64,000 nucleotides of DNA from an uncultured Solirubrobacterales bacterium (GCA_963714635.1 CAVQPM010000005.1:200852-264851); one strand, 5' to 3'. Positions 4,240 through 54,007 are shown, numbered from the stretch's first letter. Notes: generated by a model not told the origin, from the letters alone. Numbers and translations are program-made.

Positions 4240-4512
4240 GTCGCGATGAGTGTCGAGGGGAGCATGGATCGTGGGATGCGATGCACGGGCGCGGTTGTGC
4301 GGTGACTTGGGGGCGGCCGATCGCGGACCGGCCGGACGGCTTCGCCTGTGCCGGGCCGGGCACTTCAATCCGCCCGCCATGTGCTATATCCTGAAGGCAC
4401 ACAGTACCGGGGTCCATTACAAGCACCCCGAGCCCTCACCGGCACCACGCCGGTTACACGAGTCGGGCCGAAGCAAGTCTGCGACGGCTACATCTCGAAG
4501 CCCAGAGCCTCT

Positions 4513-19124: not shown

Positions 19125-20567
19125 GTGGACCTCTCAGAAGGCAAGGAGGCGGCAGTTCCCCGCGAGACCAGGCGACAGAGCACCGGGACCAGCAAGAGGC
19201 CGGTGACTCTCCGTCACCTGAAGGTTGTCGGCGTCGTCTTGCCGGTGCTCTTCATCGTCGCGCTCGAGCTGATCCGGTTGGCTTTCATCGAGAAGGGCTT
19301 CGCCGACTACAGCCCTCACATCGTCCTTGCGGCGGTCACCGTCGTCGCCGTCATCGGCTTCTCCTTCGTCATGTTCCACTTCATCGCCCGCGCCCAGGCC
19401 GAGACGGCGCAGGTCGTGACCGACCTGCGCCGAAGGCAGCGGGAGGGCCACGCCTTCTACGACGTGCTGCTTCGCATCTCCAACCAGGACCCGCTCGCGG
19501 ACATCCTCGCCGCCGTCGCCACGCACAGCAGCGACCTGCTGGCGAGCGATCACGCGGCCGTCTGCCTCAACAAACCGACGGCCCGAGCGGTCGAGCTCGA
19601 CGCGGCGCCGACGGGGACGACCCCCCTGCGGGATGGGGTCGCCATCCTGCCCGGCGCTGACGGATCCTACGATCTCTGCGATCTCCGCCACGTGCGCTCC
19701 CTGCGCTCGTCCCCGAAGCTCAAGGAGAGCCTGCAGGTCGACGTGCAGAGCGGGGACAGGGCGTTTGGCGAGCTTTGGATCGGCCGCGAGTCGGCGGTCC
19801 CCTTCGATGAGCGCGACCTGGAGTTCCTGAGGACCTTCTCCGGCTTTGCCTCGATCGCCGTGACCAGCGCCCGAGTGCGCGAGAGCGAACGCCAGGGCGC
19901 GATCCTCGCCGAGCGGGAGCGGCTCGCGCGCGAGCTGCACGACAGCCTTGCGCAGGTTCTCGGAGCGGTGCACCTGCGGCTGCGCGGGCTCGCCGCGCGC
20001 GAAGATGCCGTCGCGCCCGCGATCGCGCTCGAGCTGATCGGCCTTGCGGACGTCTGCGAGGAGGGCTACGGCGATGCCCGCGGGGCGATCCTCGACTTGC
20101 ACGAATCGAGCCGGGTCGACCGCAACCTGCTCGACAGCCTGCGCGCCTACCTGGACAAGTACAGCAAGCAGTGCGGGATCGCGACGTCGCTGAAGGCGCG
20201 TCTCGAGCACGACCTCGTCCTGCCACCGCGCAGCGAGGTTCAGATCATCAGGGTCGTCCAGGAGGCGCTCACCAACGTGCGCAAGCACTCGGGCGCACGG
20301 GCGGCGAGGGTCTGCGTGACCGCGGCCAACGGCACTGTCAGCTTCGTCGTCGAGGACGACGGCTGCGGCTTCGACGTAACCGGGGAGCAGTTCGAGCCGG
20401 GCGGGTTCGGGCTGCACTCGATGCGCGAGCGGATGGAGATGATCGGCGGCACGCTGCTGACCGATTCCGCGGCAGGGCGCGGCACCCGCGTCGTCGCCGA
20501 GCTTTCCAGCGCCCCCGCGAGCGCCCCCGCACAGGTGCCGATCCCCTCGACGATCCCCTTACGCTGA
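19125..20567 (+). CDS. membrane sensor histidine kinase (2 TM, GAF, HisKA_3, HATPase_c)
   Basis: ERERLARELHDSLAQVLGAV H-box. A GAF-like region lies before it and a G-box (GGFGLHSMRERMEMIGG) after it. Start set to GTG 19125, preceded by AAGGAG. Confidence 0.85.
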   Translation: MDLSEGKEAAVPRETRRQSTGTSKRPVTLRHLKVVGVVLPVLFIVALELIRLAFIEKGFADYSPHIVLAAVTVVAVIGFSFVMFHFIARAQAETAQVVTDLRRRQREGHAFYDVLLRISNQDPLADILAAVATHSSDLLASDHAAVCLNKPTARAVELDAAPTGTTPLRDGVAILPGADGSYDLCDLRHVRSLRSSPKLKESLQVDVQSGDRAFGELWIGRESAVPFDERDLEFLRTFSGFASIAVTSARVRESERQGAILAERERLARELHDSLAQVLGAVHLRLRGLAAREDAVAPAIALELIGLADVCEEGYGDARGAILDLHESSRVDRNLLDSLRAYLDKYSKQCGIATSLKARLEHDLVLPPRSEVQIIRVVQEALTNVRKHSGARAARVCVTAANGTVSFVVEDDGCGFDVTGEQFEPGGFGLHSMRERMEMIGGTLLTDSAAGRGTRVVAELSSAPASAPAQVPIPSTIPLR

Positions 20568-20568
20568 T

Positions 20569-21255
20569 ATGGCGGACCCGGCCAGCCCGATCCGCATCCT
20601 GCTCGTCGACGACACGGCCCTCTTCCGCACCGCGATCGGGGAGCTCATCAACAGTGAGAGCGGCCTGGAGGTCGTCGGCGAAGCCGAGAACGGCCTGGAG
20701 GCGGTCGAGAAGGCGCGTGCGCTGTCCCCCGACGTCGTCGTCATGGACATCGAGATGCCGGTCATGGACGGGGTCCAGGCGGCGCGCCTCATCGCCGAAC
20801 AAGCGCCGAACGTCAGGGTCGTCATGCTGACGGTGTCCGAGTCGGATGACCACCTCTTCGACGCGATCCGGTTCGGCGCGCAGGGGTACCTGCTGAAGAA
20901 CCTCCGCCCGGCGGAGCTCTTCTCCCTCATCAGGGCCGTGATGCGCGACGAATCCCCTCTCTCTCCGGCCATCGCGAAGCGCCTGCTTGGTCAGATCCGC
21001 GACGGCGCCTCGCTGACGAGCATGCCGGCCCCACAGCCCGAGAGGCCGGCGCTCACGCGGCGCGAGCTGGAGGTCCTGCAGCTGGTGGCGGACGGCATCA
21101 GCAACAAGGAGATCGCCACGAGCCTCTTCATCACTGAGGGGACGGTGAAGAACCACATCCACAACGCGCTGGAGAAGCTCCAGCTCGAGAACCGCACGCA
21201 GGCCGCCGCCTACATCGTCCGTCAGGGCCTGGGGCGAAGCCCCGGCAGCGGCTGA
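20569..21255 (+). CDS. NarL/LuxR-family response regulator
   Basis: Receiver domain (ILLVDD...VVVMDIEMPVMDG) plus a LuxR HTH (LTRRELEVLQLVADGISNKEIA). Starts 1 nt after the kinase stop. Confidence 0.92.
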   Translation: MADPASPIRILLVDDTALFRTAIGELINSESGLEVVGEAENGLEAVEKARALSPDVVVMDIEMPVMDGVQAARLIAEQAPNVRVVMLTVSESDDHLFDAIRFGAQGYLLKNLRPAELFSLIRAVMRDESPLSPAIAKRLLGQIRDGASLTSMPAPQPERPALTRRELEVLQLVADGISNKEIATSLFITEGTVKNHIHNALEKLQLENRTQAAAYIVRQGLGRSPGSG

Positions 21256-21327
21256 CAGGCCCCTCTGTACCGAAAATCTACCTCCGGGCGGATTGATTCG
21301 CGCGGTTCGGGGGGTGAAAATCTCGGC

Positions 21328-22239
21328 ATGCGCGAGCAGACCCTCGATCGGTTGATCCGGGCGGGCCTGAAGGCTGCCGTGGTCGGGGTCGCCCTCGTGG
21401 CGGTCATCTACTTCCTCGACCGGCCCCACAATGGCCCCTCGCTCGTGGACAGGCAGATCGCGGCCGGCGAACAGGCGGTCCGTGCCAGCCCGGCCAACGT
21501 CGGGCTGCGGCTGGCGCTCGCCGAAGCCTACCGGGCCGCGCACAGGCAGGACGGCGCCCTCGAACAGTACAGCGCGGTGCTCGAGGTCAAGCCGAACCAG
21601 GTCGCGCTGCTCGGGCGCGGCGAAATCCTATCCGAAAGAGGAGACCTCCCCGCGGCGCGCAAGTCGTTCGAACAGACGATCGGCAAGACCGGCAGCGGCG
21701 AATTCGACCGTGTCAATCCGCAGATCGAGAGCGCCTACTACGGCTTGAGCTCGGTGATGCTCAGACAGCACCAGCCCAGCAAAGCCATGCACGAACTCAA
21801 GAAGGCCCTGGACATCGAACCGACGGATGCCGACGCCTGGTATCTGATGGGGACGGCCGCGATCGAGTCCGGCGCCTACGACCGGGCCGAGAAGGCGCTT
21901 CGCCAAGCGGTGCTGTACGTGCCGACCGGCTGGTGCGCGCCCTACCAGCAGCTTTCGAACGCCTACCGAGCCCAGCACCGCACGCCAGAGCTCCAGTACG
22001 CGGAAGCGATGGTGGAGCTCTGCGAAAAGAGGCCGGCGGACGCGGCACTTCTGTTGAAGCGCCTCACCTCGGGTCCGGCCGCCGTCGACGCGATGCTCGG
22101 GCTTGGGATGGCCGCCGAGGCTCAGTCACAGCGCGCGAGCGCCGTCCGCTGGTACAGGAAGGCACTGGCCGCCGACCCTCAGAACTTCAACGCGCTCAGC
22201 GGTCTGGCCCGGCTCGGCGTCCCCACGGGAGGCCAGTGA
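21328..22239 (+). CDS. membrane-anchored TPR-repeat protein
   Basis: N-terminal TM helix (AAVVGVALVAVIYFL) followed by several TPR-like Ala/Tyr/Leu repeats. Confidence 0.75.
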   Translation: MREQTLDRLIRAGLKAAVVGVALVAVIYFLDRPHNGPSLVDRQIAAGEQAVRASPANVGLRLALAEAYRAAHRQDGALEQYSAVLEVKPNQVALLGRGEILSERGDLPAARKSFEQTIGKTGSGEFDRVNPQIESAYYGLSSVMLRQHQPSKAMHELKKALDIEPTDADAWYLMGTAAIESGAYDRAEKALRQAVLYVPTGWCAPYQQLSNAYRAQHRTPELQYAEAMVELCEKRPADAALLLKRLTSGPAAVDAMLGLGMAAEAQSQRASAVRWYRKALAADPQNFNALSGLARLGVPTGGQ

Positions 22240-22240
22240 G

Positions 22241-23302
22241 ATGGCGCCCGCGGACGAGGTCTTCCCGCTTCCCGGTGAGCCATTGCTGGACCGCGGCGCC
22301 GGCGGCCCGGCCGAGCGGCTCGCGGCGGAGGAGCGCAAGCGCCGGCGGCGCAAGATCGCCGCGCTGGCGGCGATCCTCACGGTGCTCGCCATCATCATCT
22401 TCCTCATCATCCGCGCGCTTTCCGGCAGCAGCGCCCTGCCGAGCATCCCCTCGGAACTGCCGCACCACGTCTCCGACATCTACGGGACCGTCCAGCCGAT
22501 GGGCGTGGCGGTCAGCCCGTCCGGCGGGCGGATCTACGTGACCGAAAGCGAAGGGCCCCGTCTCGTGCGTGTCTACGACAGTTCAGGGCGCCAGCTAGGC
22601 GCCCTGAAGCCGCCCGGTCGCAATGGAGCGTGGCGCCTGCCGGTCTACGTGGCGGTCAGCCCGCGAACGGAAGACGTCTACGTGTCAGACCGGCTGCGCG
22701 AAGACGTCGACGTCTACTCGCCGAGCGGCTCCTATCTGCGCTCGCTGCGGCCCACGGGAAGCCTCGCGAAGGGCGCGAAGCCGCTCGGGCTGGCGTTCGG
22801 CCCCGGCGGTGAGCTCTACATGACCGACATCGGCGGGGCCAGGCGGGATCACCGCATCCTCGCCTTCGGCGCCTCCGGCACGGCGCCGGAGCGCAGGATC
22901 GGATCCCCGGGCGCGTTCTGGTTCCCCAACGGGCTCGCGCTCGACGGGAAGGGCGACCTGTACGTCGCCGACAGCGACAACGGCCGGCTGGCGATCTTCG
23001 ACCCGGCAGGCACGCTCGTCAGCACGATCGCGCGCGGGGTCGGAGAAGGGGACCTCGGCCTGCCGCGCGGAGTGGCGATCGACGGCGACCGCCTGTTCGT
23101 CGTCGACACGACCGCCCATGCCGTCAAGGTCTATCGCCTCCCCGACAAGGCGACGGAAGTCCCCAGATACGTCGGATCGTTCGGCGGGGAAGGAATCGGC
23201 GACGGGCAGTTCCAGTACCCGAACGGGATCGCGATAGATCGCAGCGGGCGGATATACGTCACCGACCGTGAGAACGGCCGCGTCCAAGTCTGGGAATACT
23301 GA
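22241..23302 (+). CDS. membrane-anchored NHL-repeat beta-propeller protein
   Basis: TM anchor (IAALAAILTVLAIIIFLII). Repeated P.GVAV...G.IYV.D....RV..YD-type NHL blades, about 6. ATG 22241 has GGGAGG upstream. Confidence 0.8.
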   Translation: MAPADEVFPLPGEPLLDRGAGGPAERLAAEERKRRRRKIAALAAILTVLAIIIFLIIRALSGSSALPSIPSELPHHVSDIYGTVQPMGVAVSPSGGRIYVTESEGPRLVRVYDSSGRQLGALKPPGRNGAWRLPVYVAVSPRTEDVYVSDRLREDVDVYSPSGSYLRSLRPTGSLAKGAKPLGLAFGPGGELYMTDIGGARRDHRILAFGASGTAPERRIGSPGAFWFPNGLALDGKGDLYVADSDNGRLAIFDPAGTLVSTIARGVGEGDLGLPRGVAIDGDRLFVVDTTAHAVKVYRLPDKATEVPRYVGSFGGEGIGDGQFQYPNGIAIDRSGRIYVTDRENGRVQVWEY

Positions 23303-23339
23303 GGGCCGGAAGCGGCGCCGGCGCAAGGAGACACTGCGG

Positions 23340-24314
23340 GTGAGAGCGGCAGCGATTTTCGTGGCAGGCTGCGCCATATCGCTGGCCGTGTGTTTCGCCG
23401 TGCCCGCCGCGGCCGACAACGGCCCGCACATGAAGGGCCAGGGGCTCACCCCGGATACCTGTGCGATCTGCCACCGGGCTCACACCGCCCAGGCTCCCCA
23501 TCTGCTCAGAGAGCCTGAGACAGAGCTCTGCGACAGCTGCCACGGCGCCGCCGCGGCCGGTGCGAGCACCGATGTGGTGGACGGCATCGGCTATTCGAAC
23601 ACCGCGCACGCCGGCACGCCGGGGGCGCTGCGCGGCGGCGGCTTCAAGTACGCGCTGATCGACTCCGCCTCCGCTTCGGGCCAGCAGAGCGGGGGGTCGG
23701 ACCCCGGCGGCGTCGTCCCGGCGCTCGCCACCGGCGCTCCGGTCACCTCCACCCACCTGCTCGACCCTTCGAGCGAGACCGCCTGGGGCGCCGGCCCGAT
23801 CAGCGCCGAAGTCGACTATGGCACGGGCATCTCGCTGAACTGCGGCTCCTGCCATGACCCGCACGGCAACGGCATGTACCGGATCTTGCGGCCGATCCCG
23901 ACGGAATCGGCCGCGACCACGCCCGTTGAAATCCCCGAACCCGCGGGAATGAAGGGCGACGAATCGAAGCACGTCTACACGACGACCAACTACTGGGACG
24001 TCACGGACGAATACGCGCCCGATCTGATCGCCAACATCTCGGCCTGGTGCGCCACCTGCCACACGCGCTATCTCAGCGACACCTCCTACACCGCAAGCGG
24101 CGACGCCGTCTTCACCCACCGCCATCTCTCCAACGGGACGGCGCAGGGCTCGCCGAGCTGCATCCAGTGCCACGTCGCCCACGGCTCGAACGCGAGCGTG
24201 CAAGAAGCCGGCGCGATGGAAGTGCACAGCCCGCAGGCCGTGCCCGCGCCCCCCGGCAGCCGGCTGCTGCGGATCGACGACAAAGGCACCTGCAAGATGT
24301 GCCACGCCGAATGA
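23340..24314 (+). CDS. secreted hexaheme c-type cytochrome (doubled-CXXCH family), paralog A
   Basis: Six CXXCH motifs: CAICH, CDSCH, CGSCH, CATCH, CIQCH, CKMCH. Signal peptide ends AAA/DNGPH. GTG 23340 has AAGGAG 9 nt upstream. The ORF-track start 23268 would overlap the NHL gene. Confidence 0.85.
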   Translation: MRAAAIFVAGCAISLAVCFAVPAAADNGPHMKGQGLTPDTCAICHRAHTAQAPHLLREPETELCDSCHGAAAAGASTDVVDGIGYSNTAHAGTPGALRGGGFKYALIDSASASGQQSGGSDPGGVVPALATGAPVTSTHLLDPSSETAWGAGPISAEVDYGTGISLNCGSCHDPHGNGMYRILRPIPTESAATTPVEIPEPAGMKGDESKHVYTTTNYWDVTDEYAPDLIANISAWCATCHTRYLSDTSYTASGDAVFTHRHLSNGTAQGSPSCIQCHVAHGSNASVQEAGAMEVHSPQAVPAPPGSRLLRIDDKGTCKMCHAE

Positions 24315-24519
24315 CGGCGCTGCTCCCGTCGGCGCGCCCGCGCAACCGGCGAGCGGCACAGGGCCCCGTGTATCCTCCGGGCCATGCGGCCAGGCGCCCC
24401 GCCGGTCCGCCTCTACCCAAGACATACCGCCCGGCGGATTGCGCTCGACCGCGCAAGACGGGTTAATCCGCGTCGATGGTTACTACACGCGAGCTGGCCC
24501 TTGCCCAGGAGGTCGACTG

Positions 24520-25641
24520 ATGAGACGATTGGTGCTGCGCCCGATGGGATTGGTGCTGCCCCCGATGGTCGGTTGCGTCCTGTGGCTGCTTGCCGGCGCG
24601 TCCCCCGCCCTGGCGGACGCCGGCCCGCACATGAAGGGCCAGGGACTCACCCCGGACACCTGCGCGGCCTGCCACCGGGCCCACACCGGCCAGGCCCCCT
24701 ATCTGCTGAAGGAAAAGCAGGAACAGCTCTGCTTCACCTGCCATGGCTCCTCGGCCAGCGGCTCCGCCCTCGACGTCAAGGACGGCGTCGGCTATTCCGA
24801 AGAAGGCCATCAAGGCACAGCGGAAGCCCTGCGCGGCGGCGGCTTCAAGTACGCCCTGATCAACACGGGCGAAGAAGGGGTTGTAAAGGTGACGGGCGCA
24901 GAAGGCTCGCACGGTATCCCGACGGTCGAAGCGACCATCAAGACGCTGCCGGCATCGGAACTCCGGCCGGCGACCTCGTCCCACTCGGTCAACGAATCGA
25001 CCCAGACGGCCTGGGGCGGCGGTCCGATCAGCTCAACTGCAAGCTACGGCACCGCAATGAACCTGACCTGCGGCGCCTGCCACGACCCGCACGGAAACGG
25101 ACACTACCGGATCCTGAGGCCCATCCCGGTCGGATCGAGCACGGAAAAGGAAAAGGGCAAAGGCGTGGAAATCCCCGACGAACCGAAACCCCACGTCTAC
25201 ACGACGACCAACTACTGGGCAACCTGGAGCGAAAAGGACCCGGAATTCGAGTTCAAGATCTCCGAATGGTGCGCCACCTGCCACACGCGCCTGCTCGACG
25301 GCAGCAAAAGCGCCACGACCAGCAGCACTGACGCGGTGTTCACCTACCGCCACCGCACCAACTACACGCTGGAAGAATGGGAAAAATCTCCTCCGAAACT
25401 GGGTTCCGGAGGAGGGTACTCCGGCGCCAAGCCGAGCTGCATCCAGTGCCACGTCGCACACGGCACGGACGCCACAATGGGCGAACACTCGGAATCGGTC
25501 ACCCTGCCCGGACAGACGACAAACCCGTCCAGGGAAATCGAACGAGTCAAGGGCTCCGGCAATGTGACAGAAATCTCCGAAGACAGCTACCTGTTGAGGC
25601 TCAACAACAGGGGCGTCTGCGAGACCTGCCACAACAAGTAG
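24520..25641 (+). CDS. secreted hexaheme c-type cytochrome (doubled-CXXCH family), paralog B
   Basis: Six CXXCH motifs: CAACH, CFTCH, CGACH, CATCH, CIQCH, CETCH. Signal peptide ends ALA/DAGPH. AGGAGG lies upstream of ATG 24520. Confidence 0.85.
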   Translation: MRRLVLRPMGLVLPPMVGCVLWLLAGASPALADAGPHMKGQGLTPDTCAACHRAHTGQAPYLLKEKQEQLCFTCHGSSASGSALDVKDGVGYSEEGHQGTAEALRGGGFKYALINTGEEGVVKVTGAEGSHGIPTVEATIKTLPASELRPATSSHSVNESTQTAWGGGPISSTASYGTAMNLTCGACHDPHGNGHYRILRPIPVGSSTEKEKGKGVEIPDEPKPHVYTTTNYWATWSEKDPEFEFKISEWCATCHTRLLDGSKSATTSSTDAVFTYRHRTNYTLEEWEKSPPKLGSGGGYSGAKPSCIQCHVAHGTDATMGEHSESVTLPGQTTNPSREIERVKGSGNVTEISEDSYLLRLNNRGVCETCHNK

Positions 25642-25655
25642 TAGCCGCCGATTTG

Positions 25656-25700
25656 GAGCTCGCCCCCGGCGGCTGTCACCCGCCCGCCGGGGGCGAGCTC
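25656..25700 (+). terminator. strong GC hairpin downstream of cytochrome paralog B (putative operon boundary)
   Basis: Perfect 17-bp stem, GAGCTCGCCCCCGGCGG (25656-25672) with CCGCCGGGGGCGAGCTC (25684-25700), and an 11-nt loop. Followed by TATATGTGA, so only a weak T tract. Confidence 0.55.
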
Positions 25701-26006
25701 TATATGTGATCGCAGCTGTCTCTCCAGCGGAGGCATCGGGTTGCTTTGCTCCTCCACGACGGCGCCCATCGCCCTGGACGCGATTGGCGAGGGTGGGCGC
25801 CCTCGGCGGACGCCCTCGGCTATGCCGCGTCCAAGCCTGTCTGACGGATACAGGCGCGGGTGTATCGCTTGGATGATCGGCCCGGCTCACCTCTACCGGA
25901 AACATGCCAGCCGGCGGGTTGCGCGTGAAAAGGCTGCGCTCGAAACTGTCCAAGGTTGATTAATTCATCAGCCCCCGGAAAGAGAGCAGACGAAAGGGCC
26001 GACACC

Positions 26007-26813
26007 ATGACGCGCTCCGCAAGACCGAGACTACGCGCAAGGGCCGGCCGGCGCGATTCCCTCCGCCGCCTTGGGCTCACACCCGAGGCGGGCGCTGAGG
26101 ACGTGCAGAGAGCGCACGCGGAGCTGCTGAGCTTCCTTCAGGGCGCGCCGGAGGGTGTGCGCCGCTGGGCCAAAGAGGAGATCGCCACGGCCGACGACGC
26201 GTACAGGGCGCTATCGGATCCGGCCGACATGAGGGCGGCGCGCCGCAGCTCGCCGTTGAGGCGAATCGCCACCGGGACACTCGCTCTCGCCGTAACCGCC
26301 GGTGTTGTCGTCGGCGTCTACGACATGGGAGGCAGTCAGGGAGCGGCGAAGCCCCAGGCGTCCGGGACGGCCCGACCGCAAGGCCTCACCCCCAGCGAGC
26401 AGGCACGCGTCGCCCAGTTGATGAGCGAAGTCAAGGCGTCCCCGAGGGACGTCTCGGCGATGATCGAGCTCGGCAACATCTTCTTCGAAGCCCGCAGCTA
26501 CAGCAGCGCCCGCGACTGGATGAAGCGGGCCGTCGCGGTGGAACCACGGAACTCGGCGGCGCGCCTGCCGCTCGGCGCGGCGGAGTTCAACACCGGCGAC
26601 ATCGCCGGCGCCCGGCGCGACTGGCTCCGCGTCGTCGCGGCCGACCCGAAGAGCGTCGAAGCGTACTACGACCTCGGCTTCCTGTACGTGAGCAGGGAAC
26701 CGGCCGACATGGCGGATGCGAAGAAGATGTGGGCCAAGGTCGTCGCGCTGGCTCCCAACTCCGCCCTGGCCAAGACGGTCGCCACGCACATCAAGAGCTT
26801 GGAAAAGAAATGA
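26007..26813 (+). CDS. membrane-anchored TPR protein, CcmI/NrfG-like putative apocytochrome chaperone with a degenerate J-like N-terminus
   Basis: N-terminal LGLTPEAGAEDVQRAHAELLSFL (J-domain-like, no HPD), a central TM helix, and C-terminal TPRs. Its stop overlaps the ccdA ATG (ATGA). Confidence 0.6.
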   Translation: MTRSARPRLRARAGRRDSLRRLGLTPEAGAEDVQRAHAELLSFLQGAPEGVRRWAKEEIATADDAYRALSDPADMRAARRSSPLRRIATGTLALAVTAGVVVGVYDMGGSQGAAKPQASGTARPQGLTPSEQARVAQLMSEVKASPRDVSAMIELGNIFFEARSYSSARDWMKRAVAVEPRNSAARLPLGAAEFNTGDIAGARRDWLRVVAADPKSVEAYYDLGFLYVSREPADMADAKKMWAKVVALAPNSALAKTVATHIKSLEKK

Positions 26814-27568
26814 ACGAGGTCGGCATCCCAGTCGCCTTCTTGGCGGGGATCATCTCCTTCGCGTCGCCGTGCTGTTTGCCGCTCGTTCCCGGCTACGTCA
26901 GCTACATGGTCACCACCCGCGACGGCAGCCAGGCGGCGTCGCGTCGTGTCGCCTTCTTGCACGCACTCGCCTTCGTGGCCGGCTTCTCGGTCGTCTTCAT
27001 CGCGATCTGGGCGTCGGTCGGGCTGATCGGCTACGTCTTCCGCGACTACGCCGGGCTGTTGCGGCAGCTGGGCGGGGCGGTCCTCGTCTTCATGGGCCTG
27101 CACGTCGCCGGCCTCATCAGCATCCCGGCGCTCTACCGCGAGAAGCGCCTGCCGATGGGCGGCTTCGCCGGCGACGCCCGCGCCGGCGCCTCGGATCGCT
27201 CGGGAGGGGGAGATGGCGCCCTCAGCGCCCCCGGGTATGGGCGCTCGGCCCTGCTCGGCGTCATCTTCTCGGCTGGCTGGACGCCCTGCATCGGCCCGAT
27301 CCTCGGCGGGATCATCGGCCTCGCCTCGGTCGGCGCGAGTGTCGCTCGGGGCACCGTCCTGCTGCTCGTCTACGCGATCGGGCTGGGCATCCCGTTCATC
27401 CTCGTCGCGCTCGGCGTCACCGCGGTCAGCGACAGGCTCGGCTGGCTGCGCAGGCACAACACCGCGGTCGGCGTCCTGACCGGGGCGATGCTCATCGGGA
27501 TCGGCTTCTTGATGATCACCAACACCTTCGGGCGGCTGTCCGGCTCGCTCCCCCTGATCGAAACGTGA
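26810..27568 (+). CDS. ccdA: cytochrome c biogenesis thiol-reductant transporter CcdA (DsbD family)
   Basis: FLAGIISFASPCCLPLVPGY and a second conserved WTPCIGPILG motif. Polytopic. Confidence 0.88.
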   Translation: MNEVGIPVAFLAGIISFASPCCLPLVPGYVSYMVTTRDGSQAASRRVAFLHALAFVAGFSVVFIAIWASVGLIGYVFRDYAGLLRQLGGAVLVFMGLHVAGLISIPALYREKRLPMGGFAGDARAGASDRSGGGDGALSAPGYGRSALLGVIFSAGWTPCIGPILGGIIGLASVGASVARGTVLLLVYAIGLGIPFILVALGVTAVSDRLGWLRRHNTAVGVLTGAMLIGIGFLMITNTFGRLSGSLPLIET

Positions 27569-27576
27569 GCGGCGAG

Positions 27577-29055
27577 ATGAGCCAGACCATCAGCGCAGCC
27601 CCACGTCCCGGGACCCCCGTCTCGGCAGGTGCCGAGGTTCGCCGTCCCGCCACGCCGCCGCACGTCTGGGTCTTCCGCCAGCTGACCTCGATGCGGGTGG
27701 CGCTGGTGCTGCTGCTCGTGCTGGGCCTGCTCACCCTGGCGGGCACGCTTCTCAGCCAAGCTCCCGATGCTGTGGCGGGCAACCAGGCGGCCTACAGCGA
27801 GTGGCTCAACATGGTCCGCCCGAAGTACGGGGGCTGGACCTCGGTCCTGAGCACGCTCGGGCTCTTCTCGGTGTTCTCCTCGATCTGGTTCAGGGGGACG
27901 CTGCTGCTGCTGTCGGCCAGCTTGATCATGTGCTCGCTGCGCCGCTCTCCCGGCCTGTGGAGGACGGCGGCCAGGCCGCGGATGGTCATGACAAAGGCCT
28001 TCTTCGAGCGTGCGCCCCACAGGGCGATGGTCCCCTCGCAGCAGGATCCCGGCGCCGCCCTCGTCGCGCTGCGCGCCGGCTTTCGCAAGAACCGCTTCCA
28101 CGTCGCAACCGCGACAGACGGCGAGGACGTCCACGTCTGCGCCGACCGCTTTCGCTGGGCGCCCCTCGGCAGGATCCTCATCCACATGAGCTTCGTCCTC
28201 ATCCTCGCCGGCGCTCTGCTCACGGCGACGGGCGGCTTCCGGGACGAATCGCTCGTCGTTCCGATCGGCGACAGGGTGAACGTGGGACATGGCACCGGCC
28301 TGGCGGTCGAAGCGAAGTCGTTCGCCGACTCCTACTATCAGAGCGGCGCTCCCCGTAACTACGAGAGCCAGCTCGTCCTCTATGAGGGCGGCGCTCGCGT
28401 GAGGACGCAGGAAGATCGCGTCAACCACCCGGTGCGCTACGACGGCGTCACCTTCTACCAGTCCTTCTTCGGGCCCGCCGTGGAGATGCGGGCGAGGATG
28501 AGTGACGGCCGCGTCGTGTTCAACCAGGGCGTGGCACAGCAGTACTCCTCGCAGAACGAAAAGGAGCGCATCGGCCGCTTCGCGCTCCCGCAGCAGGGCC
28601 TGACGGTCTTCGTGGTCTCACCGGCCTCTGGGGAAGCAGACCCGGGAATCCCTGTCGGCGAGACGCGGCTCGAAGTCTATAGGAACACGAGCGAGACGCC
28701 GGTCGGGATCCAGCTTCTCTCGCCGGGCAGGCCGGCGACGATCGGCGGCGTCGCCTTCACGTTCGTGCGCGAACTCGAGTTCACGGGCCTGATCGTCGCT
28801 CACGATCCGGGGTCGACCATCGTCTGGATCGGCTCGGCGCTCTTGATTCTCGGCCTGGTCATGGTCTTCTACTTCCACCACCTGCGTGTCAGAGCCGTGA
28901 TCCGCCCCGGGGCGGGCGGCAGCGAGATCGCCGTCGCCACGATCGAGCGCCGCGACGAGGGCTCCGCGGCTCAGTTCGAGCGTCTCGTCGAAGACATAAG
29001 GCGTGCCGTGAGTCGCGGCGCGCAACCTCACAGAGGAGCCGGAGCCAATGCTTGA
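27577..29055 (+). CDS. resB: System II cytochrome c biogenesis protein ResB/Ccs1
   Basis: FRQLTSMRVALVLLLVLGLLTLAGTLLSQ N-terminus, a large extracytoplasmic domain, and a C-terminal TM. Overlaps resC by 8 nt. Confidence 0.85.
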   Translation: MSQTISAAPRPGTPVSAGAEVRRPATPPHVWVFRQLTSMRVALVLLLVLGLLTLAGTLLSQAPDAVAGNQAAYSEWLNMVRPKYGGWTSVLSTLGLFSVFSSIWFRGTLLLLSASLIMCSLRRSPGLWRTAARPRMVMTKAFFERAPHRAMVPSQQDPGAALVALRAGFRKNRFHVATATDGEDVHVCADRFRWAPLGRILIHMSFVLILAGALLTATGGFRDESLVVPIGDRVNVGHGTGLAVEAKSFADSYYQSGAPRNYESQLVLYEGGARVRTQEDRVNHPVRYDGVTFYQSFFGPAVEMRARMSDGRVVFNQGVAQQYSSQNEKERIGRFALPQQGLTVFVVSPASGEADPGIPVGETRLEVYRNTSETPVGIQLLSPGRPATIGGVAFTFVRELEFTGLIVAHDPGSTIVWIGSALLILGLVMVFYFHHLRVRAVIRPGAGGSEIAVATIERRDEGSAAQFERLVEDIRRAVSRGAQPHRGAGANA

Positions 29056-29926
29056 GCTATCCCAGTACTGCGTCTTCGCCGCCACCGTCGCGGTGGGCGT
29101 GGCGCTGATCTCCTACGTCGCGGCCTTCGCGTCCAGCCGCATCGGCCGGGCTCGCGCGGCGCTCGTGGTCGAGGGCGTGGACGGGCAGGTGAGCACCGCA
29201 GCTCCTGCCGACGCTACGAGCGCCGGCGCCGTCTTCGGCACGATGACGGCATGGCTGGCGCTCGCCTTCCTCTCCGCGGCGCTCGCCTTCCGCTGGGGAG
29301 CGACCGGACACGGCCCGTTCGCCAACATGTACGAGTTCTCGGTCGCCTTCGCCTGGGGCGCCCTGGTCATCAACGCCTACTTCATACGGCGCTATCGCCA
29401 ATGGGCTCTCAGCGCGATCGTGCTTCCGATCGCGCTGGGGATGCTCCTGTATGCGACGACGGTTCCGAGCACGGCCGAGCCGCTCGTCCCGGCGCTTCAG
29501 AACAACCTGCTGCTGACGGTTCACGTGGCCACCGCGGTGATCGCGTACGGAGCCTTCGCGGTCGGCTTCGCGGCGGCGCTCCTCTATCTGGTCCAAAGCG
29601 CCGGCCAGCGGCGGCACCTGCCCAACCGTGGGCTGATGGACGACCTCTCCTACAGAGCGACCCGGATCGGCTTTCCGTTCCTGACCGCGACGATCGTCCT
29701 GGGCGCCGTCTGGGCCGACATCGCCTGGGGCAAATACTGGAGCTGGGACCCCAAGGAGTCCGCCTCGCTGGTCACCTGGATCGCCTGCCTGGCCTACCTG
29801 CACGCCCGCAGCGCACGCGGCTGGCGCGGCCGGCGAGCGGCGCTGCTGCTCATGCTCGTCTTCGCGGCGACCCTCTTCTGCTACTTCGGGAACCTCTTCT
29901 TCGGGGGCCTGCACAGCTATGGCTAG
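29048..29926 (+). CDS. resC: System II cytochrome c assembly protein CcsA/ResC
   Basis: Trp-rich heme-handling motif WGKYWSWDPKE. Polytopic, with conserved His residues. Confidence 0.9.
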   Translation: MLELSQYCVFAATVAVGVALISYVAAFASSRIGRARAALVVEGVDGQVSTAAPADATSAGAVFGTMTAWLALAFLSAALAFRWGATGHGPFANMYEFSVAFAWGALVINAYFIRRYRQWALSAIVLPIALGMLLYATTVPSTAEPLVPALQNNLLLTVHVATAVIAYGAFAVGFAAALLYLVQSAGQRRHLPNRGLMDDLSYRATRIGFPFLTATIVLGAVWADIAWGKYWSWDPKESASLVTWIACLAYLHARSARGWRGRRAALLLMLVFAATLFCYFGNLFFGGLHSYG

Positions 29927-30518
29927 CCGGCGGGGCCGGCTCAGCCGGCTCAGAACGCTCCTGGTGACGGGCATGACCGCCGCCGTCATCCTGGCGGTCG
30001 CCTACCTGGCGGATCGGCCGGCGTCGGGCGGCAGCTTCACGTCGGTCCTCGTCTCGGGTGTCGCCGCGGGCCCGGCGCCGGAAGTCGGAAAGCCGGCCCC
30101 CAACTTCAGCGCCACGACGATCGAAGGCGCGAAGGTCACGCTGAAGAGCCTCCGGGGCCATCCGGTCTGGCTCACCTTCGGAGCCCCCTGGTGCCAGCCG
30201 TGCAGGGCGGAGAACCCGGACGTCGAGGCTGCCTACGAGAAGCGCCGCGCGCAGGGCCTGGAGGTCCTGGCGGTCTTCGTCCAGGACAGCAGGTCGGACA
30301 TCGAGGAATACGCCAAGCGGACGGGCCTGACGTATCCAAAGGTCGACGACTCCAGCGGCCGGATCGCATCCAGCTACCGAATCGTGGGGATCCCATCCCA
30401 CTTCTTCATCGACAGCTCCGGGATCGTGCGGGAGATCAGAATCTCCTCTCTGAACCCGTCGACGATTGACGAAAACCTCGGGGAGATCGGAGTCGATGTT
30501 GCCGGACCTGAAAGGTGA
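29919..30518 (+). CDS. resA: membrane-anchored thioredoxin-like ResA/TlpA
   Basis: TM anchor plus the FGAPWCQPCRAE redox motif. Confidence 0.85.
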   Translation: MASRRGRLSRLRTLLVTGMTAAVILAVAYLADRPASGGSFTSVLVSGVAAGPAPEVGKPAPNFSATTIEGAKVTLKSLRGHPVWLTFGAPWCQPCRAENPDVEAAYEKRRAQGLEVLAVFVQDSRSDIEEYAKRTGLTYPKVDDSSGRIASSYRIVGIPSHFFIDSSGIVREIRISSLNPSTIDENLGEIGVDVAGPER

Positions 30519-32154
30519 GCCGGATGACGCATCGGGCGAGTCCGCGCGCGAGCGCAGCCGCCGGTTCGGCGCAGCCGCGGGCAGTCACCGCGCCGGCGGC
30601 GCCCGCCACGGTCGACTGGGCGCAGCCGCGGTCCCTCGCCGCATCGGCGAGCTCGTCGCTCGGCGCATCCGGCCGCCGCGCAGCGGGCGTGGCTTTGCCG
30701 TCTCGCTGCTCGCCGTGGGGGGGCTCTGCGGGGTGGCGGCGATCGGCGGCAGCGCCTTCCAGGCGTTCAGTGAGACCGAAGGCTTCTGCTCGCGATGTCA
30801 CACGATGGCCCCGGAGGCGGCCGCGCACAAGCTGTCGGTCCACCGCGACGTCGCCTGCGGCGAGTGTCATGTCGCGCCGGGCATGGTCGGCTTGGTCAAG
30901 TCGAAGCTGCGAGGGGCGACTCAGGTGCTCGATCTGGTCGCCGGCACCTACCCGAAACCGATCCCGCCGCCGGACCCCAGCCTGCTTCCGCCCCCGGAAA
31001 AGACGTGCATGAAATGTCACCCCCTGAACACCATCACCGGTGAAGACGGACAGATAAAGCTCATACTGCACCACACCTACCGCGAAGACGAAGCGAACAC
31101 GCGCGAAACGGTCGCCGTCATGGTCCGTCCGTACCGTCTCGGGGAAGGGGCGGCGAGCCGCGGCGCGCACTGGCACGTCGAAGTGAAGATGGAATACGCG
31201 AGCCCCGAAAAGGACTCCCAGAAGATCAATTGGATTCGAGTCACCTACAAGGACGGCCACACCGAAGAATGGGTCGCCCGCTCGCAGGTCGGCGTCTCGA
31301 GCGACGTACGACCGGACGTCGGCCGTCTGACGCGGACCGATTCGGTACGCCAGGTGACGTGCATCACTTGCCACAATCGCGTCGGCCACGAATTCCCGCT
31401 TCCCGGCGAAGTGATCGACAGCGCAATCGCGGCAGGCAAGATCAGCCAGTCCCTGCCCTATATAAAGCGTGAAGGGGTCGAGCTCCTCGGCAAGCGCTAC
31501 CGATCGACCGGGGAAGCGGACAAGGCGATCGAAGGCATCCGCGGATACTACGCGGCGAAGTACCCGCTGCTCTCGAGAACCCGTGGACGGGAAGTCAACC
31601 GTGCTGTCGATCAGCTCAAGCAGATCTACCCGCTCGTCGCCGACCCCGCCATGAACGAGATCTCGGCCGACTACCCGAACAACCTCGGCCACCAGTCGGG
31701 CCCCGGCTGCCTGCGCTGTCACGATGGCTCCCATTTCAAGGTCGGCCCCGAAGGTCGCCTCCTGAACGCGACGATCCCCTGGGAATGCACGACGTGCCAC
31801 ACCTTCCCGCAGACCGGCAGAACGGTCTCCAGCCTGTCTGTACTGAATCCGCCCCCCGACCACCAGTCCAAGCTGTGGGTCTTCGAACACGCGCACAACC
31901 CCGCGGCCCTCGAACCAGGTATCGCGAAGAACAGCTTCTGCGCGAACTGCCACTCCTCCGGCGCGGAGAAGGTGAACCACGAAGAAATGCTCTACCACCA
32001 CCCGCAGGTGATCGAAAAGGCCAGTCTCCAGGCGTGCGGGTACTGCCACCGGGAAGCCTTCTGTGCCAGGTGCCACAAACAACCGGTCCTCGGCTCGAGC
32101 GTGTTCGACGGCCCGGGCAACGCGGCGCTCCTGAGCGACACGGGGCGAAAATGA
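30496..32154 (+). CDS. membrane-anchored nine-heme NapC/NirT-family cytochrome c (putative quinol dehydrogenase with extended C-terminal heme domain)
   Basis: TM helix (FAVSLLAVGGLCGVAAIGG), then the NapC/NirT-type start FCSRCHTM...SVHRDVACGECH. Nine CXXCH in total: CSRCH, CGECH, CMKCH, CITCH, CLRCH, CTTCH, CANCH, CGYCH, CARCH. Confidence 0.85.
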   Translation: MLPDLKGEPDDASGESARERSRRFGAAAGSHRAGGARHGRLGAAAVPRRIGELVARRIRPPRSGRGFAVSLLAVGGLCGVAAIGGSAFQAFSETEGFCSRCHTMAPEAAAHKLSVHRDVACGECHVAPGMVGLVKSKLRGATQVLDLVAGTYPKPIPPPDPSLLPPPEKTCMKCHPLNTITGEDGQIKLILHHTYREDEANTRETVAVMVRPYRLGEGAASRGAHWHVEVKMEYASPEKDSQKINWIRVTYKDGHTEEWVARSQVGVSSDVRPDVGRLTRTDSVRQVTCITCHNRVGHEFPLPGEVIDSAIAAGKISQSLPYIKREGVELLGKRYRSTGEADKAIEGIRGYYAAKYPLLSRTRGREVNRAVDQLKQIYPLVADPAMNEISADYPNNLGHQSGPGCLRCHDGSHFKVGPEGRLLNATIPWECTTCHTFPQTGRTVSSLSVLNPPPDHQSKLWVFEHAHNPAALEPGIAKNSFCANCHSSGAEKVNHEEMLYHHPQVIEKASLQACGYCHREAFCARCHKQPVLGSSVFDGPGNAALLSDTGRK

Positions 32155-33572
32155 CGAATACGCCGCAGACGTCGGTTCATGAGGAGTGGCTGACGCTGCA
32201 CGAGGCCTGCTCGCTCATCGGCGTGTCGCCGGCCACGCTGCGCCGCTGGAGCAACAACGGGGACATCAGCACATTCACGACGCCCGGAGGCCACCGTCGT
32301 TATGCCAGGTCGGCGATTCTCGCCCTCCTGCCGGCGCCGAGGGCGGTGTCCCCTGCCACACCCCCTGCCGCACCCTCCGCAGCGTCCTCGGCCGCGGCCG
32401 ACCCGCGCGCCGGAACCGGCGCGCCCCTCTCCTCCCTGCTGGCCCTCGTCGCCCAGGCGCGCCGGGTTTCGACCGCGGCGCGCGAGGCGTTCGCGACCGA
32501 GCTGGACGCGCTCGAGCGCAGCGAGGCGGCGATCGTCGTCCACACCTGCCATCGGGTCGAGCTGTACGTCGCTCTCGAGGGGTTCGGAGAGCGGCCGCTT
32601 CCGGACCTGCCGCCGGGAGCGCAGCGTTTCGAGGGGATCGAGGCGGCACGGCACCTCGTCTCGGTCGCCTGCGGGCTGGACAGCGCGGTGCTCTGCGAGA
32701 ACCAGGTCCTCCACCAGCTCCGCGAGACCCTCACCCGGCGCCGCGCCGAGCATCCGCTGGACCCGACCCTCGATCGGCTCTTCCAGGTCGCGCTCCAGGC
32801 GGGCCGGCGCGCTCGCAGCCGGTTCGGCGGCTCGACGCGATCGCTGGCCGACGTCGCGCTCGAGTGGGTGGAAGAGCGGGCCGGAGCGCCCGAGGGGCAG
32901 CGAATCCTCGTCGTCGGGGCGGGCGTCATGGGGCGCCTCGCCGCGCTTGCCGCGGCCAGGAGGGGGGCCGAGGTGATCGTCATGAGCAGGACCGGCGAGC
33001 GAGCCGCCGCTCTCGCACGCGAGGTGGGCGGACGGGCGATCCCGTTCGAGGGCGAGGGCGCCGTGCCGCGCCTCGCCGGCGCGATCGTGGCGCTCCGCGG
33101 CAGCTGGCCGCTCGCCGGCGAGGATGCCCGCAAGCTCGCCGAGAGCGGCGCGATCGTCGTTGACATGTCCTCGCCGGCGGCCGTCCCGGATGCGCTCCAG
33201 GCCGCGCTCGGCGACCGCCTCGTCTCGGCTGACGACCTCGCCCGGGGAGAGGACGTCGAGCTGACCGACCGGCTCCGCGGCCAGCTCGAGAAGCTCGCGG
33301 CCGAATCCGTCGAGTCGTACTTCCGGTGGCTGGGCTCGCGCAACGTCGTGCCGGCGCTCCAGGCGATCGGCCAAGCCGCGGACGAGCAGCGCCGCGGCGA
33401 GCTGGACTGGCTGTTTCGCCGTCTGCCCGGCCTCGCCGAAAAGGAGCGCTCGCTGATCGAGCAGATGAGTCACCGGCTGGTGGCGGACATCCTGCACGCG
33501 CCGCGATCGGCGCTCAACGCGGATGACGGCGGTCAGCTCGCGCAGGCCGCCCGAGAGCTCTTCGGAACGTGA
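32151..33572 (+). CDS. MerR/excisionase-type HTH domain fused to a full-length glutamyl-tRNA reductase (HemA) paralog
   Basis: N-terminus WLTLHEACSLIGVSPATLRRWSNNGDISTFTTPGGHRRY, then a Pro/Ala linker. GluTR-like domains follow: VVHTCHRVELYV (compare VISTCNRTEVYL in hemA at 34885-36264), GLDSAVLCENQVLHQL, Rossmann ILVVGAGVMG, and a dimerisation tail. The ATG overlaps the NapC-like stop (ATGA). Confidence 0.8.
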   Translation: MTNTPQTSVHEEWLTLHEACSLIGVSPATLRRWSNNGDISTFTTPGGHRRYARSAILALLPAPRAVSPATPPAAPSAASSAAADPRAGTGAPLSSLLALVAQARRVSTAAREAFATELDALERSEAAIVVHTCHRVELYVALEGFGERPLPDLPPGAQRFEGIEAARHLVSVACGLDSAVLCENQVLHQLRETLTRRRAEHPLDPTLDRLFQVALQAGRRARSRFGGSTRSLADVALEWVEERAGAPEGQRILVVGAGVMGRLAALAAARRGAEVIVMSRTGERAAALAREVGGRAIPFEGEGAVPRLAGAIVALRGSWPLAGEDARKLAESGAIVVDMSSPAAVPDALQAALGDRLVSADDLARGEDVELTDRLRGQLEKLAAESVESYFRWLGSRNVVPALQAIGQAADEQRRGELDWLFRRLPGLAEKERSLIEQMSHRLVADILHAPRSALNADDGGQLAQAARELFGT

Positions 33573-33579
33573 GCTCGAC

Positions 33580-34884
33580 ATGCGGTTCTCCTCGGAGAGC
33601 GTAATACCGGTTCGCCCAAGGATGGCCGGAGCTCGGTCTTGGATGCCGCGGCCGCCGCGTGTGCCGCGAGGGACGCGTGTGCCGCGGTGGCTGTGGGTCC
33701 TCGGCCCGGGGTTGATGGTGATGTTCGCCGACACCGACGCGGGCAGCGTGATCACGGCTTCCCAGTCGGGCGCGAGATGGGGCTACCGGCTGCTGGCGCT
33801 GCAGGTGCTGCTCGTACCCGTGCTTTACCTGGTCATGGAGCTGACAGTTCGGTTGGGGATCGCGACTGGCAAGGGACATGCGCAGCTGATCCGTGAGCGC
33901 TTCGGCCGCCGCTGGGCGCTCATATCGGTCGGCACTCTGGCGGTGAGCGCGCTCGGCGCGTTGGTGACGGAGTTCGCGGGGGTCGCCGGGGTCGGGGAGA
34001 TGTTCGGGATCTCGCCGGCGCTGACCGTGTTGCCGGCAGCGGCGCTGCTGGTGGGGTTGGTCGTCTCGGGCGGCTACCGGCAGGTGGAGGTGGTCGGGAT
34101 CTGCCTGGGACTGTTCGAGCTCGCCTTCGTCGTGGCGGCGGTGCTCGCCCACCCGAGCGCACACGCGCTCGCCACGGGGATCGCCAGCCAGCCGCTCGGC
34201 CAGCCCGGCTATCTGACGCTCATCGCGGCGAACGTCGGGGCGGTCGTGATGCCGTGGATGCTCTTCTACCAGCAGGGCGCCGTGATAGAGAAGGGCCTGA
34301 CCGCGCGCGATCTGCGCCCGGCGCGGATCGACACTGCGGCCGGCGTGCTGCTCACGCAGCTGATCATGGGCGCGGTGCTGGTGGTGACCGCGGCGAGCTT
34401 CCACGGTCGCGCCGGGGGCTCGCTACAGAGCGTCGGGGCGATCGCCGGAGCGCTCGCGCCGCTGCTCGGCGGCTCGACGAGTCGCATCGTGCTCGCGTGC
34501 GGGATGCTCGGAGCCGCGCTGGTCGCGAGCATCGTCGTCTCGCTCGCGGCCGCCTGGGCGATCACCGAGACCGCGGGGCGGCCGCGCAGCCTGAGCGACG
34601 GTTGGCGCCGCGCGCCACACTTCTACGGCCTCTACGCGGGCGCCGTCGCGTGCGGCGCGGTGCTCGTGCTCGCCAGCCACTCGCTCGTACGGCTCGCGAT
34701 CAACGTCGAGGTCCTCAACGCCCTGCTGCTGCCGCTCGTGCTGGGCATGCTCGTCCTGCTCGCCCACCGGGTGCTGCCCGCACCACACGCGCTGCGGCGC
34801 GGCCACCGCGCCGCCGTCAGCTTCGCGGCGATCGCCGTCGCACTGGTCGGGCTCATCTGGCTGGGCTTTGCGTTCGGACTCTGA
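33580..34884 (+). CDS. mntH: Nramp-family divalent metal (Mn2+/Fe2+) transporter
   Basis: GPGLMVMFADTDAGSVITASQSGA and the MELTVRLGIATGK motif. Polytopic. Start uncertain (33580, 33622 and others). Confidence 0.88.
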   Translation: MRFSSESVIPVRPRMAGARSWMPRPPRVPRGTRVPRWLWVLGPGLMVMFADTDAGSVITASQSGARWGYRLLALQVLLVPVLYLVMELTVRLGIATGKGHAQLIRERFGRRWALISVGTLAVSALGALVTEFAGVAGVGEMFGISPALTVLPAAALLVGLVVSGGYRQVEVVGICLGLFELAFVVAAVLAHPSAHALATGIASQPLGQPGYLTLIAANVGAVVMPWMLFYQQGAVIEKGLTARDLRPARIDTAAGVLLTQLIMGAVLVVTAASFHGRAGGSLQSVGAIAGALAPLLGGSTSRIVLACGMLGAALVASIVVSLAAAWAITETAGRPRSLSDGWRRAPHFYGLYAGAVACGAVLVLASHSLVRLAINVEVLNALLLPLVLGMLVLLAHRVLPAPHALRRGHRAAVSFAAIAVALVGLIWLGFAFGL

Positions 34885-52518: not shown

Positions 52519-52621
52519 GGCCCAAGCTTCGACCCGATTTCGCGTAGCTCGTCTCCTTTGGCTCAAGTGGAGGCTTGTTTTGGCCGAATAGACGATCACC
52601 GGACGAACGGAGAGCTTTTCA

Positions 52622-53932: not shown

Positions 53933-54007
53933 CCCGCCGAGCCTCTCCGGCTCGCTCTCCTCGCCGCCGGGTTGCACGGCCCGCCCGGTCGAGCGCGAAG
54001 CCTCCGC

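Follow-up and report, generated by a model that had tools for sequence, protein, structure and literature searches.

We describe a cluster of multiheme cytochrome genes in a stretch of 64,000 nucleotides from an uncultured Solirubrobacterales bacterium (GCA_963714635.1 CAVQPM010000005.1:200852-264851). This whole stretch is referred to as the window, and all positions are counted from its first letter. The cluster at positions 19,125 to 33,572 encodes a two-component system, membrane-anchored TPR and NHL-repeat proteins, two hexaheme c-type cytochromes with signal-peptide-like N-termini, the components of System II cytochrome c maturation, and a membrane-anchored cytochrome with nine heme motifs that is homologous to a published ImcH homolog. 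Its gene order is conserved in two phyla, Actinomycetota and Chloroflexota. Based on these features, we hypothesize that the cluster encodes an extracytoplasmic electron-transfer chain of the monoderm type, a reading to which we assign a probability of roughly 0.65. The electron path, the partners, any filament formation, the direction of flow and the substrate of this chain are what we infer. The genes, together with one hairpin between them, are the following:

19125..20567, + strand: sensor histidine kinase with HisKA_3 and HATPase domains and two transmembrane helices (alternative start ATG 19047)
20569..21255, + strand: response regulator of the NarL/LuxR type (Response_reg 98 bits, GerE 73 bits)
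21328..22239, + strand: TPR1, a membrane-anchored protein with one N-terminal transmembrane helix and TPR repeats predicted to be extracytoplasmic
22241..23302, + strand: membrane-anchored NHL-repeat beta-propeller (NHL 121 bits, one transmembrane helix)
23340..24314, + strand: HexA, a predicted secreted hexaheme c-type cytochrome (six CXXCH, Paired_CXXCH_1, signal-peptide-like N-terminus)
24520..25641, + strand: HexB, a paralogous hexaheme cytochrome (six CXXCH, Paired_CXXCH_1, signal-peptide-like N-terminus)
25651..25705, + strand: GC-rich hairpin (arms of 22 nt at 25651-25672 and 25684-25705, 91% complementary)
26007..26813, + strand: TPR2, with about 100 cytoplasmic residues, one transmembrane helix and a predicted extracytoplasmic TPR region (alternative start TTG 25956)
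26810..27568, + strand: CcdA, a thiol-reductant transporter (DsbD_TM, PF02683; cysteines in PCC and TPC motifs)
27565..29055, + strand: heme-handling protein of the ResB/CcsB type, here ResB (PF05140 239 bits; start GTG 27565 or ATG 27577)
29048..29926, + strand: protein of the ResC/CcsA type, here CcsB (TIGR03144 217 bits, above the cut-off of 187.6; tryptophan-rich motif WGKYWSWD)
29919..30518, + strand: ResA/TlpA-like membrane-anchored thiol-disulfide oxidoreductase (AhpC-TSA, Redoxin, WCQPC)
30496..32154, + strand: nine-heme ImcH-like cytochrome with a single transmembrane helix and a NapC/NirT/NrfH-type N-terminus (nine CXXCH, Cytochrom_NNT), here called the anchor
32151..33572, + strand: helix-turn-helix (HTH) domain of the BldC/MerR/excisionase type fused to a divergent glutamyl-tRNA reductase (GluTR) paralog (Pfam and NCBIfam assignment)
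33580..34884, + strand: Nramp/MntH transporter, a doubtful member (Nramp 221 bits; alternative start 33523)

Calling of open reading frames (ORFs) in the window, which has a G+C content of about 70%, displays 14 consecutive + strand ORFs between 19047/19125 and 34884. Six of the gene models (HexA, HexB, NHL, CcsB, the nine-heme protein and HTH-GluTR) are identical to public gene calls, residue for residue. The intergenic distances up to TPR2 are 1, 72, 1, 37, 205 and 314 nt (the last being 365 nt if TPR2 starts at ATG 26007), and those in the second part of the cluster are -4, about -4 to 8, -8, -8, -23 and -4 nt, including an ATGA overlap at 32151-32154. The original prediction, which was made from the sequence alone, had described 14 tightly packed genes on one strand with 21 c-heme sites; ORFs and spacing agree with the former, and a motif count of 6 + 6 + 9 CXXCH with the latter. 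Domains were assigned with Pfam and NCBIfam, and transmembrane and signal calls were taken from hydropathy, which places single N-terminal helices in TPR1, the NHL protein, ResA and the nine-heme protein. All domains named at that time were found again, with a lower standing for two of them: the GAF domain of the kinase is marginal (21.0 bits versus a Pfam cut-off of 22.4), and the CcmI/NrfG-like label of TPR2 is below threshold (28.5 bits with the TPR_CcmH_CycH model, cut-off 42).

The HexA family comprises at least 1491 proteins in a word-indexed search, and an exhaustive search yields 360, 1054 and 2257 clusters at 50% identity for E <= 1e-30, E <= 1e-10 and E <= 1e-3, respectively. Scanning one genome per species returned 275 HexA relatives. 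Multiheme conduits had been called rare in organisms of the Actinomycetota type, which these relatives and the 360 clusters of the strictest threshold show to be wrong for the Hex family. Of the loci found in the scan, 78 were retained, and the 14 proteins of the window were mapped on them by tblastn. [quoted passage not shown] The recurrent order is kinase, response regulator, TPR1, NHL, one to three copies of Hex, and, further downstream, TPR2, CcdA, ResB, CcsB, ResA and the anchor.

Co-occurrence with the hexaheme gene was counted only over loci with enough flanking sequence. The NHL gene is located directly 5' of Hex in 68 of 71 such loci, and TPR1 is present in 63 of 66. The response regulator and the kinase co-occur in 51/55 and 47/52 loci, TPR2 in 46/51, CcdA in 42/50, ResB in 41/49 and CcsB in 25/32, and both ResA and the anchor are found in 26 of 31. 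Since this arrangement is conserved across two phyla, it is more than a product of chance. The proposed module of extracytoplasmic multihemes with NHL and TPR partners, a two-component system and a co-located System II hence recurs as a block in Actinomycetota and Chloroflexota, which is the outcome of the gene-neighbourhood check suggested earlier.

The anchor is a candidate menaquinol dehydrogenase. It matches the Cytochrom_NNT model with 36.8 bits (cut-off 24.1) and the NrfH structure 2j7a with E = 9e-9, and all its matches to the NrfH, TorC and NapC models of NCBIfam are far under the cut-offs. It is 41% identical to an ortholog in the same cluster position of I. calvum (locus L046, 19101-20777), which has one transmembrane helix and ten CXXCH motifs in total (at 106, 129, 179, 297, 413, 438 and further positions). 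The I. calvum protein WP_013492697.1, an ImcH homolog according to Zhong and Shi (2018) (PMC6295460 Table S3), likewise has one transmembrane helix, with CXXCH at 104, 127, 177, 295, 411, 436 and further positions. Because these patterns of heme positions match, we take the ortholog at L046 to be an ImcH homolog of the WP_013492697.1 type. The offsets of the first six heme motifs are 0, 23, 73, 191, 307 and 333 in the anchor of the window, 0, 23, 73, 191, 307 and 332 in the ImcH homolog of I. calvum, and 0, 24, 73, 183, 300 and 320 in ImcH homologs of Gram-negative bacteria (PMC6295460). The Cytochrom_NNT and NrfH matches, together with this ImcH-type spacing, bear out the suggestion of a NapC/NirT-like anchor at the quinol side. 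The anchor also resembles Thermincola ImdcA, to which it is 25% identical (E = 1e-8) in a segment covering the transmembrane helix and hemes 1-3.

HexA and HexB appear to be relay proteins. HexB is 51-53% identical to HexA and carries insertions. Cleavage of HexA is predicted between AAA and DNGPH, and a signal-peptidase I site of this form (AxA followed by DNGPH) is general in the wider family. In most lineages, the mature hexahemes lack an anchor. Six CXXCH motifs are present in 110 of 118 family members, and six additional histidines are invariant or near-invariant (at least 90%) in the family, namely H14, H32, H123, H159, H246 and H265 in the numbering of the trimmed HexA. Six conserved histidines outside the motifs are consistent with bis-His ligation of all six hemes as relays, without a catalytic site. 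A CXXCK or other catalytic-heme motif was found in none of the three cytochromes of the window, and an enzymatic role of the hexahemes was rejected for lack of CXXCK and for the full set of distal histidines. Anchoring of HexA as a lipoprotein was considered as well: the cysteine in the lipobox-like VAGC context of its signal peptide (23340-23420) is invariant only in the closest Hex proteins of the Solirubrobacterales type and lost in the wider family, so that lipidation seems unlikely. As for composition, G+C content within the cluster is lowest in the region of HexB (24000-26000; 0.656), where the GC skew is negative, and HexB failed a GC3/GC2 coding filter.

Hex family profiles of rising diversity (A1, 16 sequences; A2, 53 sequences; A5, 112 sequences) were searched against all sequences of the PDB. 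OmcS was matched with E = 9e-4, 1.8e-5 and 4.7e-6 by A1, A2 and A5, and OmcE with E = 0.07, 4.1e-5 and 5.7e-6, respectively. The strong matches are MtrA, OmcS and OmcE only, with OmcS second to MtrA, and the MtrA match covers the paired-CXXCH motif alone. The PDB contains many other multiheme structures, none of which ranks above OmcS and OmcE in this search. Against a full-length six-heme protein of Geomonas agri (L079:772-2109) that is OmcS-like, the Hex profile reaches E = 3.8e-6; hemes 3-6 are colinear in one alignment, and both proteins end a few residues past heme 6. Motifs common to the Hex and OmcS types are LxCxSCHDPHG..YR, (S)xWCAxCHT and CxxCHxAH. In the reverse direction, a hidden Markov model (HMM) of 26 OmcS-family proteins matches only HexB (best) and HexA among 580 ORFs of the window. 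These similarities suggest that the hexahemes are remote OmcS-like relatives, outside the OmcS family in the strict sense.

The histidine in the CHxxH motif after heme 1, at the position of His16 in OmcS, is at least 90% conserved in the Hex family. It is uninformative on filament polymerisation with histidine ligation between subunits, because it is part of the generic paired-CXXCH motif. Heme counts can mislead in such comparisons, as many "OmcS-like" database proteins of about 340 residues lack the first two hemes. Also, the OmcS ortholog of a Geobacterales-type metagenome contig (L080:9705-10960), whose first residues, FHDGGVAKCESCHTMHNS, are close to those of the OmcS chain in the PDB, is broken by a frameshift into calls of 73 and 319 residues.

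An NHL gene is located immediately 5' of an OmcS-type gene both in Geomonas agri (L079) and in the metagenome contig (L080), both of the Geobacterales type, and this adjacency is the same as in the window. The NHL protein of the window is 28-29% identical to the NHL proteins of these two loci (E = 1e-6 to 8e-9). This is weak but specific evidence, at the level of sequence comparison, that the hexahemes and their NHL neighbour may be homologous to the NHL-OmcS gene pair of Geobacterales. The NHL propeller and TPR1 are likely to be retention, scaffold or assembly factors for the hexahemes, because both are anchored by a transmembrane helix and almost inseparable, in genomic terms, from cytochromes that have no anchor.

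This data may suggest the following mechanism. On the outer side of the membrane, the single-helix ImcH-like cytochrome would trade electrons with the menaquinone pool, and its nine hemes would lead them on to the secreted hexahemes HexA and HexB, in which every heme is bis-His. TPR1 and the NHL propeller probably retain, orient or assemble these two hexahemes. The chain would end at an external acceptor or, with electrons flowing inward, begin at an external donor. TPR2, CcdA, ResB, CcsB and ResA would attach the 21 hemes, HTH-GluTR would probably tie the module to the supply or the sensing of heme, and the kinase with its NarL-type regulator would switch the module on. The start of the kinase gene is preceded by the Shine-Dalgarno sequence AAGGAG, and the loop between the two transmembrane helices of the kinase comprises about 15 residues by hydropathy. 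With so short a loop outside the membrane, the kinase probably senses a membrane or cytoplasmic cue via the weak GAF domain, and not an external metal.

As a whole system, the closest analogue is the pathway for extracellular electron transfer in Thermincola potens and T. ferriacetica, consisting of ImdcA, PdcA, CwcA and OcwA (PMC7911101). The membrane multiheme cytochrome ImdcA and the OmcS-like hexaheme cytochrome CwcA have been proposed to carry electrons through the peptidoglycan, where CwcA is proposed to polymerise (PMC7911101). Both systems belong to monoderm hosts, and in both the quinol side is taken by a NapC/NirT-like multiheme with a membrane anchor; by description, both also contain a bis-His hexaheme with remote homology to OmcS, CwcA there and Hex here. 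They differ in that the anchor of the window is ImcH-like with nine hemes and no ortholog of ImdcA, that PdcA and OcwA have no counterpart in the window, and that the cluster integrates ccs genes, a two-component system and a GluTR paralog.

With OmcS and OmcT of Geobacter, the cluster shares tandem paralogous hexahemes that are all bis-His, the motifs CxSCHDPHG..YR, WCAxCHT and CxxCHxAH in the same order, a last CxxCH two to three residues from the stop, and the NHL gene immediately upstream as seen in L079 and L080. However, the similarity is remote, and Hex is shorter (about 300 versus 407 mature residues). Unlike Geobacter, an actinomycetal host has no outer membrane to cross. Downstream of omcS, L080 encodes a propeller of the YncE type, a lipoprotein resembling GNA1162 and a peptidyl-prolyl isomerase (PPIase), and this content fits the omcS-companion (osc) cluster of Shen et al. 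(2025) as reported in PMC13194489. By Pfam, none of the 14 window genes encodes a YncE-like (OscD-like) propeller, a channel-type component or GNA1162-like lipoprotein, or an OscH-like PPIase; in the place of these components the window has TPR proteins with transmembrane anchors. ImcH of the GSU3259 family, a multiheme quinol oxidase of the inner membrane, resembles the anchor in the NapC/NirT-like start and in how its first six heme motifs are spaced, and differs in having seven heme motifs (one CX3CH and six CXXCH) as compared to nine CXXCH here and ten in I. calvum. In Dethiobacter alkaliphilus, another Gram-positive iron reducer, multihemes, a CymA-like quinol oxidase, NHL and TPR proteins and regulators are likewise described in one cluster, with other cytochrome families and another gene order, and the repeat proteins have been proposed to aid assembly or orientation of complexes (PMC10376724).

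Cell-wall multiheme cytochromes were noted in a Solirubrobacterales MAG in 2019 (PMC6344600), and an OmcS homolog was noted in a Coriobacteriales MAG in 2020; with the ImcH homolog of I. calvum, listed in 2018, these earlier mentions are fragmentary. Calling the system undescribed, as was done initially, is thus too strong in view of the Solirubrobacterales MAG, the published ImcH homolog of I. calvum (PMC6295460), the remote kinship to OmcS and the analogue in Thermincola (PMC7911101). In the literature we found no description of a conserved cluster of 12-14 genes for Actinomycetota or Chloroflexota, with which the "widespread" claim of Shen et al. (2025) may overlap.

Several observations weigh against an electron-transfer chain as proposed here. 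The anchor lacks two hallmarks of ImcH, which are three transmembrane helices and a CX3CH motif; a single helix is also found in the ImcH homologs of I. calvum and Anaerolinea thermophila (PMC6295460). The reciprocal search with the OmcS-family HMM reaches only E = 0.03-0.05 at Z = 177,635, the size of the PDB. Alignment of the Hex and OmcS families by hhalign is confined to one short motif block of 21-23 columns, which is no proof of global homology. An AlphaFold2 model of HexA, computed without hemes from 112 diverse sequences, has a predicted local distance difference test (pLDDT) score of 83.5 and a predicted template modelling (pTM) score of 0.84; it replaced a model from a 16-sequence alignment that was unusable (pLDDT 34). 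Searching the PDB with this model by Foldseek returns OmcS alone, and only weakly (E = 0.043, TM-scores 0.19/0.15), so that the scores of this predicted model do not establish a common fold of HexA and OmcS. The ccs genes of the cluster could be a plain housekeeping set, and the hairpin with the 314-nt gap may split the cluster into two transcripts.

Furthermore, no terminal reductase is evident in the window, and other taxa have a heptaheme protein in the slot of HexB. Outside Solirubrobacterales, the slot after HexA is occupied by a protein of 450-1370 residues with seven CXXCH (I. calvum and about 40 other loci), whereas Solirubrobacterales, the window included, carry extra Hex paralogs in its place. 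One copy was examined, that of I. calvum (L046:11236-13707); it combines a signal peptide with a linker rich in Pro and Thr and a beta-rich region, and its C-terminal part carries Paired_CXXCH and an MtrC/MtrF-II/IV domain, the latter with 45 bits versus a cut-off of 30. The large heptaheme protein is a candidate for a wall-spanning or terminal reductase.

The most serious competing explanation is that TPR2-ccdA-resB-ccsB-resA is a housekeeping maturation locus in a heme-biosynthesis region, a setting common to many Actinomycetota, beside which the multiheme genes merely accreted; we consider this the less probable origin of the arrangement, and still a substantial one. Any actinomycete requires System II for its cytochrome c, including that of the bc1 complex. 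All four components (CcdA, ResA, ResB and CcsA) are present in the cluster with their signature motifs, and the 64-kb window holds no second resB or ccsB. In L017 and L023, TPR2 adjoins the anchor gene with no ccs genes between them, and the cluster of these loci is devoid of ccs genes. A System II dedicated to the module, as had been assumed, is for these reasons not supported. The product of TPR2 may be an apocytochrome chaperone or part of the anchor complex.

The same explanation is also consistent with the hairpin and the 314-nt gap between the two units and with the heme operons that flank the window cluster on both sides. The flanks, both on the - strand, are hemD/cobA, hemC, ctaA, hemY, hemH and hemE upstream, and canonical hemA (34885-36264) with a HemX-like gene downstream. 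However, the heme-operon flank is common to L001, L004 and L006 only, and the setting between heme operons, originally listed as part of the module, is therefore a trait of the closest relatives. Accretion is further disfavoured by the order TPR2-ccdA-resB-ccsB-resA-anchor after the hexaheme genes, which is kept in about 82-90% of loci with enough flank in both phyla, and by its difference from the mycobacterial order, resA-ccdA-resB-ccsA.

The hairpin itself coincides with the largest gap of the cluster, after HexB. It had been taken to divide the genes into two units; hairpin and gap are real, and it carries no T-run and received no call in a terminator scan. It is a possible terminator or attenuator. 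A scan of the cluster gaps displayed no RNA elements, and a promoter scan found no sigma-70-like promoter.

Electrons could also flow inward through this chain, with Fe(II), Mn(II), reduced humics or a partner cell as the source and the quinone pool or an oxidase as the destination. This direction is conceivable, as the hemes are all bis-His and hence reversible relays, the hosts are mostly aerobic soil lineages going by database labels, and a Mn/Fe transporter gene adjoins the cluster. We regard it as unlikely. To date, quinol oxidation is the only role in which ImcH has been implicated (PMC6295460), and this mildly favours export. An oxidase of the Cyc2 or MtoA type is missing, and mntH of relatives is not operonic. 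Its orientation is reversed in L002 and L003, so that mntH, formerly counted among the cluster genes, is better seen as a neighbour than as a member of the operon. A role in supplying electrons to an ordinary respiratory enzyme outside the cytoplasm (Nrf-, Hao-, Otr- or sulfite-reductase-like) would agree with the matches of the anchor N-terminus to the NrfH, TorC and NapC models and with the known dissimilatory nitrate reduction to ammonium in I. calvum, but is very improbable given that those matches fall far below the cut-offs, that catalytic-heme motifs are missing, that the hexahemes conserve six distal histidines for six hemes, and that the window cluster lacks a gene for a catalytic subunit, with none noticed in related loci either.

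HTH-GluTR contains all three GluTR Pfam domains and remains under the NCBIfam cut-offs (174.8 versus 429; 154.8 versus 209.55). It is 31% identical to canonical HemA (34885-36264, - strand). The catalytic-cysteine motif TCxR is kept (TCHR), the GEAEIQGQ motif shows changes, and the protein lacks a stretch of about 15 residues. The fusion is conserved in Solirubrobacterales loci (65-84% identity) and a few others, and cluster versions of Chloroflexota also include a hemA-like gene. The protein could boost the supply of heme or serve as a regulator that responds to heme.

Some further genes of the window deserve mention. The segment 34885-37170 (- strand) encodes, after canonical hemA, a Cytochrom_C_asm (CcsA-like) protein of 229 residues; it is the second CcsA-family gene of the window, lies outside the cluster, and is closer to the HemX-type partner of hemA operons than to a heme lyase. 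The stretch that separates hemE from the kinase (16700-18952) contains genes for an MFS transporter (+ strand) and a DDE transposase (17963-18952, - strand); it looks like a local insertion, because hemE directly adjoins the kinase gene in L001 and L004. A second membrane-type redoxin/TlpA-like gene is found beside a helicase gene at 3619-4383 (- strand), far from the cluster and with no ccs linkage. The region 52592-56582, with an HD-domain protein carrying B12-binding_2, an epimerase, a cytochrome P450 and tRNA-Phe (56510-56582, - strand), is unrelated to the cluster.

Going beyond the electron-transfer chain as such, the OmcS-like hexahemes might polymerise on the NHL/TPR platform into a heme wire that spans or passes the peptidoglycan in Solirubrobacterales, actinomycetes of the Micrococcales type and Chloroflexota. 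We regard this extension as speculative and rather improbable. If it were true, respiration by cytochrome nanowires would be ancient and common to Terrabacteria and Desulfuromonadia, instead of being a speciality of Geobacter, and oxic-anoxic soil habitats would commonly harbour it, too.

Solirubrobacterales, actinomycetes of the Intrasporangiaceae type and Chloroflexota are abundant in soil, sludge and the subsurface. One conserved cluster that unites relatives of ImcH and OmcS provides a genetic handle on the passage of electrons through the Gram-positive wall, and would supply a marker set for metagenome surveys. The interest of the cluster lies mainly in its commonness, in its span of two phyla and in a cultured host: its presence in Intrasporangium calvum makes the hypothesis directly testable.

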